From UHGV virus genome UHGV-0140686: a stretch of DNA of 50,702 bases; one strand, given 5' to 3'. Position numbers: made by a program. This DNA comes from a virus. Positions 6,001 through 9,000 of this stretch are shown piece by piece (positions within the stretch are counted from its first letter, which is position 1; every line of letters starts with the position of its first letter).

Positions 6001-9000
6001 CTGAGACATAGAAATTCCTTATTAACTGATGAGCGAAGTGGTATCAGTGAATTTGTTGGTGCGGATCACTGAGCCGCTTTAAGCTTTCCATCCACCGTGC
6101 CGGTGATGCCGAACAGCTGACCCTGATCTTCCTGCAGGATGGTGAGCTTGCCGCCTTTGTTGACCCACATAGGTGTTTCGGTGGTGTCCTCTTCGGACGC
6201 TTTGCCGCGTGGGGTAGGGGTGCTGTAATTCAGGCGATGCTTAATCTTGACGCGCTTCTCTTCAACGGAGTTGCCCATACGCTCAAAATCAAAGGTGAGG
6301 ACTACCTTGCCTTTATTGCCGTTGTTCAGAACGCCGAGCGCGGTGGTATTGAGAGCCGCCGCAATCTTATTCATGAACACGCCGGCATCGAGCTCGCCCA
6401 GGAAATCGGGCACGACTGTCATGCGATCATTACTCATGGTTTTTTACCCTCATGAAAGGCGGCTGCAACCGCCGGAATTTTCTCCATACACAACACAGAA
6501 GAGCATCTGCGGTTAGCAGCCGCCCGGGTGGATTGGGTTATGAGCCCGTCGCCCGGTGATGCTCTTTTGTCTTGTGTAAAAAGGGCGGTTACCCATCAGA
6601 ACGTTATCCTCTTCCTCCTTTGGGTAGTGGAAAACTGGATAACCGCCAAGACTACACACAGCACAGTTAACTAGGTTGTGGCGGTGGTGCCTCCACCTGC
6701 CGGGTTAAGCCATAACCGGAGGCGTACACTGCCCAGAAACGCATTCATTGAACGGTTTGGCTCGCTGGGTGCGCATAGCCGCAATTACCACAACGAAGAG
6801 GGCACTGCCGGTGTCCGAATCGAACGGACCTTTTCCCTGCCCATCACCAGATATCGAACTATCCTGGCGTCTGGAATCGAACCAGACTCTGTGCCTTGCT
6901 CGTCAGAGCCCTCATCGTTGTGCGCTGTGGTGGCGGGAGTCGAACCCGCATAACGTCCGGCCGGACCGCATGAGATAACCTGTGTTGCGAACATTGGTTA
7001 GTGCTCAACTCCCCATACGAGGGGCGCTCTATCCATTTGAGCTACACCACAACGGTAAGAGCACTGCCGCCACCCCTTGCGGGATAACCCGTCTGTCTGC
7101 CTGGCGGTAGGGCGTTTCCTGGCATCTTCAGTGCTCTTTCCTGTTGTGTCCCGAACGAACTCTTCCCGGGTGTCACACCTTTTCGCCGCGCTGGTGGGGC
7201 GCACGTCGTGCCTGAAACACTTAGCTTGCACATTTCCGGTTGTCCTGTGAGCGCATGGATAAAGGGAACTCTCAGGCCGCTGACGCTGCATGTGCCATAC
7301 AACGGTTGCGAATATTGCCGTTCACAACTGGAAGCGCACTCCTTCAGTGACAAACCAGTCCCCACGACCGATGGAAGATGGAATGCGCTTTCATGTTGGG
7401 TACGATTCATCTACCCCGGTCCGGCGGCGCCACCTCGCCGGGGCAGATGCAAAGGACCGTTACGCGATCATTCGGCTTGTTGGTATGGCCGGAAGTATCA
7501 AGTCCCGACATCGCGGATTCTGCTTCTCCGCCCCGATTTCACCCCCGCTATTGTTTAGCGCGCAAACCGAGAAAATCGCCTTCAACGCTGTCGGCTTTCG
7601 CCATGTTCGTTCAGGTATCTTCGGGCGGGGTGCTAAGGTGGTGATGAGCCCTTGTCCTTAACACTCCTACTGGTTTTCGGCATTCCTGGCTTGGGTATCG
7701 CCACCAGTTGTAGGAATTTTACTATGAGTTGCGGTTAATCAGGCCGCACCTCTGTTACCCCTCCCGAAGACACCTGCCACTTTATGTGCCTGCTTTTCAC
7801 CACATCAGGCGAGGTGGATCCTGGTTATTCCCCAACAACAAGGATTCGGTTAATCTGGATATCCCCAACAACGAAGAGGTGTTGCTATGAGTGTTATTAG
7901 CGAAGAATTTTTCCAGAAAATTCTTAATAATCTTTCCGAACTACACGGTATAGCAGTGTTTGGTTCAGTTACTGAACCCGGCTATTCCCAGGTCAAAAAT
8001 CGTGCTTCACTCGTATTTGCACTTGAAGTCCTACTTGAGCGACATCGTGAAAAACACGGAACCTTATGGAGCCCGTTACCCGGAAAACTCGCTTTGTTGC
8101 ACTTGATCCTTCAAAAGTACAAATGGCCATTATCTGAAATAAAGGCTTTGACCCTGCAGGAGTCCGTATTCCTCCTTCAGGAAGAATTAAAATTTGAAAA
8201 CCTTCCGGATCTGGCTCAACGTGTTCTCAAAAATTATTTAGCTGACCGAGCTGAACACTACTTCGCTGAAATACGAGAGGAAGAGTGGGATCCAGATCTG
8301 TATCTCACAATTCCAAAGCCGCAGCGATGGTGAGTTCGTCAATGAGTTGATCGACCACTTCGATTGACTGCTTAAGAGCTTCTCTTTCGGCGATTGCGGT
8401 TTTAAGCCGATGTGATGCACTAATTTTCCGTTCCATCCAGGAGATGACCTCTTCCTCGGTGCTGCTAGGAGCAATGATTTTTGGTTCAGTTGCCTTCATA
8501 AGGCCTCCATTCAGTTGGTTAACGTGTTGGGGCATCCAGATTGTTAAAGAGCTAAGCGTCCTACGGGGCGCTTTTTTCATACCTGCGAATCATCCCGGCC
8601 TTCGTATGCCCCGGGCGGCTACTTCGTGGGCGTCCTGCCTGTTCGCTGTTGATGGATTAATAATACAGATAAAACTGTTAATTCGTCAACAGTCAAAACT
8701 GTATTGAGTGGGGGTGTTTACTTGAAAAACTGTAATTTATTGTTTTTTATGAAACTAAAGACGTAAAAAAACCGGCGCTAGCCGGTTCATGTGAGGAAGG
8801 ATTTACCTTTTTCGCCTGTAAATTCTATGTTCGACCATTACGCCGATAATTTTCAACGGGCATTCAGAGCTATTGATGGTGGGGTAGTCGTCATTAAGGG
8901 GGACCAGTTCATATTGCTGGCGGCCTGAAATATCGGTAAATGTAGGACGGTACTTTTTAAAAGTTGCCTCATTATCACCATTTTTAGCAACAACAAACTC

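Follow-up and report, generated by a model that had tools for sequence, protein, structure and literature searches.

How does RNA polymerase (RNAP) cross the opening stretch of a prophage early operon that is largely untranslated, and within which another gene is read in the opposite direction, when no N-type antiterminator is detected? This question is raised by the early-left region of the virus genome UHGV-0140686, analyzed here as a window of 50,702 nucleotides (nt; 50.7 kb). Its pL-like promoter (TTGACG-18-TATTAT; 8689..8660, minus strand), which a promoter scan places where a first-pass annotation of this DNA had put pL, is predicted to start transcripts at ~8653. From there it is ~2.2 kb to the yfdP-like gene (6437..6066, minus), and 195 nt of this distance are translated, as an open reading frame (ORF) of 64 amino acids (aa; 8305..8499, minus); the yfdP-like gene is the first convincing coding gene after that ORF. 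The first-pass annotation had singled out the small ORF as acidic, unlike N, and as overlapping a convergent gene, and had read the layout as interference between lysogenic and lytic transcripts. As first stated, this finding is mostly ordinary: the ORF is a member of a known family and sits in a conserved convergent pair. Next to it lie a ribosomal RNA (rRNA)-type boxA and one arm of a long-range RNA helix, and it is these that bear on the question. We propose, with moderate confidence and by analogy, that the pL leader copies the leader of rRNA operons, boxA and long-range stem alike, and would thereby provide N-independent, Nus-mediated resistance to Rho together with RNA looping; such a leader probably lets transcription proceed without an N protein.

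A consensus boxA in the early-left leader

On the pL transcript, an rrn-type boxA (GCTCTTTAACA; 8552..8542, minus) follows a hairpin by 2 nt and lies 43 nt upstream of the ATG of the 64-aa ORF. It is on the transcribed strand, downstream of pL, and is a perfect fit to GYTCTTTAANA, the functional gamma-proteobacterial boxA consensus derived from rRNA and suhB (PMC5725501). No other site in the 50.7-kb window matches this consensus, and the element is still unique there when up to two mismatches to the 13-mer rrn boxA are allowed; a second boxA is found neither on the pR side nor anywhere else in the window.

The element is also conserved. It is invariant in phages SfIV and Kati and in a prophage of Escherichia coli ATCC 11775, despite differing promoters and operators; the ATCC 11775 prophage keeps it though its cargo genes differ too. 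More broadly, at least 120 viral contigs in IMG/VR (L026-L145) carry the pattern GCTCTTTAANAATCTGG, behind diverse leaders.

A long-range helix that begins at boxA

The last base of boxA is the first base of a 21-nt arm (AAUCUGGAUGCCCCAACACGU; 8542..8522, minus) that can pair with a second arm (UCGUUGUUGGGGAUAUCCAGAUUA; 7874..7851, minus) ~650 nt farther along the pL transcript. The two arms bracket both the small ORF and the convergent gene; viewed on the plus strand, the 3' arm lies just upstream of the ribosome-binding site (RBS) of the latter. The duplex of the two arms has a computed energy of -29.9 kcal/mol, compared with -19.6 kcal/mol (sd 2.5) for shuffled arms, and 0 of 500 shuffles reach it; the helix is present in both the minimum free energy and the centroid folds of the whole 741-nt RNA. 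The pairing recurs in related phages: across 85 unique loci, a partner of -24 kcal/mol or lower is found within 140-1000 nt for 68% of the 26-mers that follow boxA, versus 10% of controls. At least five unrelated classes of arm sequence exist, each pairing with its own partner; one belongs to an E. coli prophage with just one gene, a different one, in its cassette, and in the common class the 3' arm is part of the conserved backbone and the 5' arm varies with the cargo. Since unrelated arm sequences stay complementary, it is the complementarity itself that is selected.

On which strand, and at which level, does this selection act? Of 41 unique pairs, 39 form a stabler duplex as pL-sense RNA than as antisense RNA. 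Transitions in the arms preserve pairing through wobble (G.U) on the pL-sense RNA 59 times versus 12, and the bias persists when the pairs are chosen by strand-neutral DNA alignment (37 versus 8; binomial p 1.5e-5), in counts that are not corrected for the relatedness of the loci. Selection on the helix is thus strand-specific and operates at the level of the pL-sense RNA. As a separate observation, boxA-AATCTGG leaders in which no partner arm is detectable sit behind quite different early promoters.

The hairpin before boxA serves mainly the opposite strand

The first-pass annotation had placed a hairpin at 8556..8571 in the leader of the small ORF. A hairpin is indeed there; this segment is the core of a 20-nt hairpin (8554..8573; 55-74 nt upstream of the ATG of the 64-aa ORF) that mainly serves the plus strand, on which a terminator scan identifies it as the intrinsic terminator of the convergent gene (AAGCGTCC-TACG-GGGCGCTT followed by a T-run). 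As plus-strand RNA it reads AAGCGUCC-UACG-GGGCGCUU and then a U-run, with an energy of -12.8 kcal/mol; on the pL strand it contains a C.A mismatch, reaches -6.5 kcal/mol, and is followed by AGCUCUUUAAC instead of a U-tract. The opposite-strand form is also the more stable one in 31 of the 33 unique related leaders that have this hairpin type. The hairpin is therefore primarily the terminator of the convergent cargo gene, selected on that strand. It lies 220 nt past the stop codon of that gene, that is, beyond the small ORF; the cargo mRNA would thus be antisense to the whole small ORF and its RBS, and a sense/antisense interplay between the two convergent genes is plausible.

A conserved pair of convergent genes

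What do the two genes encode? The small ORF opens with an ATG, 4 nt after the Shine-Dalgarno sequence GGAGG (8508..8504, minus; read from sequence), and is the first ORF so led after pL, as the first-pass annotation had it. Its product is moderately acidic and clearly not of the basic, arginine-rich N type (isoelectric point 4.87; 12 D/E versus 8 K/R; net charge about -4.4 at pH 7; no arginine-rich stretch), which agrees with the earlier description. The homology search that the annotation had suggested assigns the protein to the YdfC family: it matches phrog_1744 over its full length (E 1.6e-25, residues 1-64 of the 68-position profile) and E. coli K-12 YdfC (b1573, from the dicBF operon of the Qin prophage) at 39% identity over 64 aa without gaps (BLASTP, E 2e-13). 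A tblastn search against phage genomes gives 25 records at 36-39% identity, several of them annotated as YdfC. An exhaustive profile-free search of a 1.8-billion-protein library returns 27 cluster representatives, among which P6, W21, M22, K25, L32, A35, I53, and L56 are conserved, and a word-indexed homolog search returns only the protein's own cluster; the exact protein occurs on 197 contigs, and its cluster takes its name from Klebsiella variicola. The AlphaFold (AF2) model has an extended N-terminus followed by a single long helix, residues 15-62, with a predicted local distance difference test score of 91. Pfam, NCBIfam, and PADLOC give nothing usable (PIN_12 and DUF6847 are far under threshold), and no function is assigned to YdfC in PMC5069750 or PMC10448788. 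Judged by homology, the ORF is a genuine gene and a member of the YdfC family. A longer frame of 91 aa, from an ATG at 8580, was rejected as unsupported because the phrog_1744 profile begins at its residue 28. The start codon of the 64-aa ORF occupies the 3-nt loop of a small hairpin, GCCUU-AUG-AAGGC (8492..8504, minus), which is not kept in SfIV-type homologs.

The convergent gene (7887..8333, plus), the cargo gene antisense to pL, encodes a 148-aa phage-associated protein of the ECs1072 family (NCBIfam NF033230, 148.1 bits against a cutoff of 70; phrog_5286, E 1.1e-69). The protein is all-helical, without a known fold relative, and has no Pfam or PADLOC match. The 3' ends of the two genes overlap by 29 nt (8305..8333, both strands), and the overlap pointed out in the first-pass annotation turns out to be a rule: a hidden Markov model census of 149 loci counts 51 YdfC-like genes, 46 of them accompanied by an ECs1072-like gene, and in every one of these 46 cases the two genes converge and overlap. 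The clear exceptions to the pairing are Qin-type operons, in which ydfC stands without an ECs1072 partner. The identical 64-aa protein is always found beside the 148-aa gene, with the same overlap, behind at least four repressor/Cro types, and five homologs (34-50% identity) keep the layout of repressor, small gene, and convergent 148-aa gene with overlaps of 23-62 nt (at one of these loci, truncated by its contig, the convergent gene has 88 aa); a locus search seeded with the 148-aa protein recovers only three loci. The two genes thus form a conserved module. Given how consistently the genes pair and overlap, the two proteins are likely to be functionally linked, the YdfC-like protein most likely acting together with, or against, its ECs1072-family partner. 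Neither protein matches known toxin-antitoxin or anti-phage defense families, nor does the 148-aa protein match a fold of such systems.

Is the 148-aa gene expressed in the lysogen? A standard sigma-70 scan found no promoter for it, and a relaxed scan gave a sole candidate, TCGCCA-16-TACTAT at 7698-7725. The outside support comes from one source: ECs1072, the namesake of the family, was detected by microarray in uninduced O157 Sakai (PMC2241611), which weakly suggests lysogenic expression. The proposal that lysogenic and lytic transcripts interfere is therefore borne out as far as the conserved overlap and a plausible antisense interplay go; its lysogenic transcript stays presumptive because no consensus promoter was found for the gene.

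A slot for cargo read against pL

Is boxA tied to this particular pair? The genes between boxA and the 3' arm vary from phage to phage. In 61 unique cassettes the dominant ORF is nearly always antisense to pL, and it belongs to the ECs1072 family, a ~200-aa family, a ~150-aa family that is hydrophobic by eye, an LprI-like family (19.5 bits, under the Pfam cutoff of 22), or a singleton. The YdfC-like ORF accompanies the ECs1072 family only. The ATCC 11775 prophage (L002) lacks a sense ORF anywhere from pL to the end of the cassette, and most other cargo classes likewise combine boxA and the arm with no sense ORF. The slot is a site for cargo genes read against pL.

Two observations on the slot stand apart. 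Among contigs L026-L145, at least nine gene families unrelated to one another occupy the interval from boxA to the partner arm; with few exceptions they are read against pL, and with few exceptions they are uncharacterized. In e14 of E. coli K-12 (L006) the same slot, without boxA, carries another convergent overlapping pair (5498..6085): ymfJ (minus), the first gene after the ymfK repressor, and ymfI (plus), with a 63-nt overlap.

A proposed N-independent passage through the slot

Long untranslated RNA is a natural target of Rho. How, then, might RNAP reach the yfdP-like gene? The first-pass annotation had allowed for a canonical N elsewhere in the early-left operon; among the minus-strand ORFs from 1182 to 8499, none has a Pfam match to an N family. 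Nor does the window have the arrangement of two nut sites: it contains a single boxA, and the hairpin lies upstream of it rather than downstream. The boxA and helix next to the small ORF, which the interference reading missed, suggest that pL transcription is driven through the convergent gene by a dedicated device, rather than merely being subject to interference.

We infer the following sequence of events. When the repressor is inactivated, RNAP that starts at pL would pass the hairpin, which in that direction is weak and without a proper U-tract. Once transcribed, boxA would bind host NusB and NusE and, with NusA, NusG, and SuhB, would nucleate an rrn-type complex (the members named for the rrnTAC are NusA, NusB, NusE, NusG, SuhB, and S4). 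This complex would make RNAP resistant to Rho along the ~2.2 kb of sparsely translated RNA, through the antisense of the cargo gene, a structured RNA, a tRNA-like element, and a DicF-like small RNA (sRNA), up to the yfdP-like gene. It would also tether the 5' arm to RNAP for as long as the 3' arm takes to appear; pairing of the two would then turn the cassette RNA into a stem-loop, a likely substrate of RNase III. No N protein would be required. A wider version may be ventured more tentatively: widespread enterobacterial temperate phages may have swapped N for a miniature host rRNA leader, with a boxA complex that carries a Rho-resistant RNAP across antisense cargo and a long sRNA/tRNA-like precursor, and that closes a co-varying stem which loops out, and probably excises, the RNA of the cargo slot.

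Several points weigh against this proposal. Both boxA and the helix are optional: L021, L022, L024, L025, and e14 carry the slot without boxA, four of these five have the same gene pair, and some boxA-less loci still have gaps of 400-900 nt downstream. About half of the unique boxA-AATCTGG loci have no clear partner arm. A bias toward C-to-T mutation associated with transcription could contribute to the transition counts, which take no account of how the loci are related. Selection on the hairpin before boxA acts on the opposite strand, so that this hairpin resembles boxB in position only, and the 161-nt leader folded globally is no more stable than its shuffles (z +1.8). The DicF-like element ends in an intrinsic terminator, and rrn-type complexes are mainly anti-Rho and are not known to suppress intrinsic terminators efficiently; read-through to yfdP is thus not fully explained. 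Non-detection of N is weak evidence of its absence, because N proteins diverge fast and are poorly conserved. Finally, anatomy and analogy are the basis on which binding of Nus factors, resistance to Rho, and cleavage by RNase III are proposed.

Could the locus be a plain antisense switch? The 148-aa gene would then be on in the lysogen, with an mRNA antisense to the small ORF, and transcription induced from pL would collide with it and silence it; we consider this unlikely. The convergent overlap kept at 46 of 46 loci suits such a switch, as do the placement of the terminator of the plus-strand gene beyond the small ORF, the loci that have the same gene pair and no boxA, and the detection of the ECs1072 gene in uninduced O157 (PMC2241611). 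Under this account boxA would be incidental, or would act as a brake of the suhB type, at which a Nus complex blocks the RBS of the small ORF and promotes Rho termination, also a doubtful role, despite a boxA-ATG distance that falls inside the 50-nt window for predicting suhB-type regulation (PMC5725501). Many cassettes (L002 and most cargo classes) have boxA and the arm with no sense ORF after boxA; translational repression is therefore not the general role of boxA. The switch also leaves the co-varying, strand-biased helix unexplained, and it calls on a gene for which no consensus promoter was found.

Alternatively, boxA could be part of a nutL-like site for an unrecognized phage antiterminator, either a diverged N analog or an RNA-binding factor encoded elsewhere. 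Lambdoid nut sites such as lambda nutL do contain boxA, N proteins are small and poorly conserved, and several early-left ORFs have no family assignment; boxA-AATCTGG, moreover, stands behind many different early promoters, in about half of the loci without the helix. Yet the window has one boxA and none on the pR side, no boxB-type hairpin can be read from the sequence 3' of boxA, the first ORF is acidic, and L002 lacks any sense ORF from pL through to where the cassette ends. The boxA is, besides, a full rrn consensus, and such an element binds NusB/E strongly without N. We regard a hidden N analog as quite improbable.

That the inverted repeats are DNA-level termini of mobile or invertible cargo cassettes inserted at a fixed site by boxA, and not an RNA helix, is equally hard to credit, even though the slot is bounded by repeats, holds many unrelated genes, and has arms that differ by cassette as those of different mobile elements should: a DNA repeat should be symmetric, whereas the arm mismatches are biased by strand (59 versus 12, or 37 versus 8 in the strand-neutral set) and in 39 of 41 pairs the sense duplex is the stabler; neither the cassette nor its immediate surroundings contain a recombinase or transposase; and the common class has its 3' arm in conserved backbone and a 5' arm that varies with the cargo. 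An invertible cassette was rejected on the same strand bias and on orientation, the inverted form being found at 0 of 46 YdfC/ECs1072 loci.

The immunity region and the leader module

The proposed N-independent leader belongs to a lambdoid immunity region, which comprises a gene for a repressor with helix-turn-helix and S24 domains (8803..9435, minus), a Cro-like gene (9533..9763), and a CII of the CP76 type (9792..10343). The pL-like promoter sits directly 3' of the intrinsic terminator of the repressor gene (8788..8769, minus; terminator scan), and operator-like inverted repeats flank it at 8646-8660 and 8678-8692. Leftward, the genes are YfdP-, YfdQ (DUF2303)-, and YfdR-like, followed by a ParB-like gene, an exonuclease gene, xis, and int; this gene content places the phage in the SfIV / e14 / CPS-53 group, as a temperate phage of Klebsiella.

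The first ~60 nt of the pL transcript form a conserved 5' leader module (AACAGGCAGGACGCCCACGAAGTAGCCGCC...GATGATTCG; 8583..8643, minus), which is kept in SfIV, Kati, the ATCC 11775 prophage, e14 (L006, ~6120-6180), and L024. The phages that share it differ in promoters and operators, and some of the loci (e14, L024) lack boxA. Within the module a hairpin pairs 8615-8611 with 8598-8594 and shows a compensatory change, from CCCGG/CCGGG to CCTGG/CCAGG. A permissive scan of 6300-8800 found no Rfam family for the module. A compact leader structure resembling the put RNA of phage HK022, which was not directly compared, was dropped because the leader shows no unusual stability.

Non-coding RNA downstream of the slot

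Directly after the cassette, the pL transcript contains a strongly structured non-coding RNA (7612..7808, minus) built on the nested inverted repeats 7612-7631/7757-7776 and 7633-7649/7792-7808 (I1 and I3). The fold of 7590-7880 has an energy of -106.5 kcal/mol (z -3.69), and 0 of 200 shuffles are as stable; part of the RNA, GTGGTGAAAAGCAGGCACATAA, is kept in SfIV, e14, and E. coli prophages.

Farther along the untranslated early-left RNA is a tRNA-like element (6925..7051, minus; Rfam tRNA, 39.8 bits, E 2.5e-6), in which the acceptor, D, and T arms are intact and ~66 nt take the place of the anticodon/variable region; ARAGORN makes no tRNA call here. The element is followed by two more hairpins that resemble T arms, TCTGGTTCGATTCCAGA and GTCCGTTCGATTCGGAC (~6874..6890 and ~6815..6831, minus). 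Upstream of the yfdP-like gene is a DicF-like sRNA (~6580..6665, minus; conserved terminator stem TTGGCGGT...ACCGCCCTTTTT), which was also aligned to K-12 dicF. Its score in the window, where it has an insert, is a weak 16 bits against the Rfam gathering score of 48; in Klebsiella relatives (L009 5574-5621, L010, L013, L016) it is full length at 31-32 bits, also under 48. At gathering thresholds, an Rfam scan of the whole window returns only tRNA and STnc100, both outside this region. The STnc100 match (22545..22731, plus, 72 bits) lies ~1 kb after a tRNA-Thr gene (21532..21607). Just under threshold (38-45 bits against 47), STnc100 also appears downstream of the cassette, in the pL sense, in SfIV (L001 4773-4995) and in the ATCC 11775 prophage (L002 5095-5317), and it may recur among phages as a leader RNA.

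From the cassette to the yfdP-like gene, the stretch devoid of ORFs (6440..7886) measures ~1.45 kb in the window, 1.15-1.26 kb in Klebsiella relatives that have the identical gene pair, and ~0.45 kb in SfIV, and its segment 7129..7411 matches many Klebsiella phages at 89%; the varying lengths and these matches indicate that the stretch gains and loses modules.

Comparison with known systems

Has such an arrangement been seen before? In the searchable literature, which is incomplete, there is no prior description of a boxA in such prophages, of a role for ECs1072, or of a function for YdfC, and we found none of the element as a whole: an rrn-style boxA combined with a long-range helix that brackets a slot for antisense cargo, in a phage without a detected N. 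Its parts do have counterparts. The lambda pL-nutL-N-sieB region likewise has a repressor-controlled leftward promoter, a leader with boxA, and a small first ORF that faces a rightward gene; N (35037..35438, minus) is directly adjacent to sieB (34482..35036, plus), which lies within the early-left operon. Taken alone, a convergent neighbor opposite the first early-left ORF is therefore nothing unusual. The first ORF of lambda, however, encodes the basic antiterminator N, whereas that of the window encodes an acidic YdfC-family helix; the lambda boxA is weaker (CGCTCTTA) and is followed by boxB, while the phage has a full rrn boxA with the hairpin before it and the helix arm after it; lambda has two nut sites and the window a single boxA; and the lambda cargo, SieB, is unrelated to the ECs1072-family gene. 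The put RNA of HK022, to which the leader is likened by description only, is also a cis-acting leader RNA, proposed to replace N. It acts on RNAP directly via two stem-loops and needs neither boxA nor Nus factors. If correct, the proposal made here would explain how lambdoid phages of the SfIV/e14/CPS-53 type, which lack N, manage to transcribe an early-left region that is long and mostly untranslated with no antiterminator of their own.

Two host systems show what boxA can do outside rRNA operons. In the 5' untranslated region of suhB, boxA acts to repress the gene that follows it (Baniulyte et al., 2017, PMC5725501); there too a consensus boxA lies in an mRNA leader within 50 nt of a start codon, but the phage boxA recurs without a downstream sense ORF and joins a long-range helix. 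Upstream of arrays of clustered regularly interspaced short palindromic repeats (CRISPR), boxA shields the untranslated arrays from Rho (Stringer et al., 2020, PMC7665894). The phage boxA likewise stands at the start of a long untranslated transcript, with a proposed role against premature Rho termination; the CRISPR loci belong to the host and have no long-range helix starting at boxA, and the role in the phage is deduced by analogy.

The dicBF operon of Qin (ydfA-ydfB-ydfC-dicF-dicB) resembles the surroundings of the small gene: a homologous YdfC (39% identity) is encoded in a repressor-controlled early operon, and ydfC is followed by an untranslated region with dicF, an order mirrored by the ydfC-like gene and the weakly scoring DicF-like element of the window. 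In Qin, by contrast, ydfC is the third gene and has no convergent ECs1072 partner, and the 6-kb locus has no boxA; the DicF-like element of the window, for its part, scores under the Rfam threshold and has an insert. The strict pairing of YdfC-like and ECs1072-family genes provides the first testable functional lead for the YdfC of this well-studied operon. If the slot is what we propose, it would also offer a general answer to how prophages carry lysogen-expressed genes antisense inside an early operon, and the interval from boxA-AATCTGG to the partner arm would be a recognizable slot of uncharacterized lysogen-side genes, candidates for exclusion or defense.

A close parallel to the leader itself is that of the E. 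coli rrn operons (boxB-boxA-boxC). The boxA core, GCTCTTTAACA, is identical in the phage; a hairpin ends just ahead of it, by 3 nt in rrnH and by 2 nt in the phage; the long-range arm starts at offset 11 from the start of boxA in rrnH and at the last base of boxA in the phage. The stalk of 16S rRNA and the phage helix both pair beyond a long enclosed segment, in the same order and spacing, the phage version being smaller, and the downstream phage RNA is, like rRNA, long, mostly untranslated, and structured, with a tRNA-like element. The differences are several: the phage helix encloses ~650 nt, with one small ORF and the antisense of the cargo, versus 1.5 kb of rRNA; it has ~20 bp (-30 kcal/mol) versus ~40 bp (-58 kcal/mol); the hairpin before boxA is under selection as a terminator of the opposite strand; the promoter is a repressor-controlled pL; and binding of the factors is presumed by analogy with rrn. 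In the published model for rRNA operons, boxA bound by NusB/E is tethered to the elongating RNAP via SuhB, which promotes formation of the 16S stem, aids its processing by RNase III, and in suitable contexts confers resistance to Rho (PMC4807359; bioRxiv 10.64898/2026.03.17.712431). Should the phage leader work in the same way, it would add a second natural case of RNA looping through boxA and offer a small, non-essential, genetically tractable model for a Nus/SuhB mechanism that is hard to study at the essential rRNA operons.

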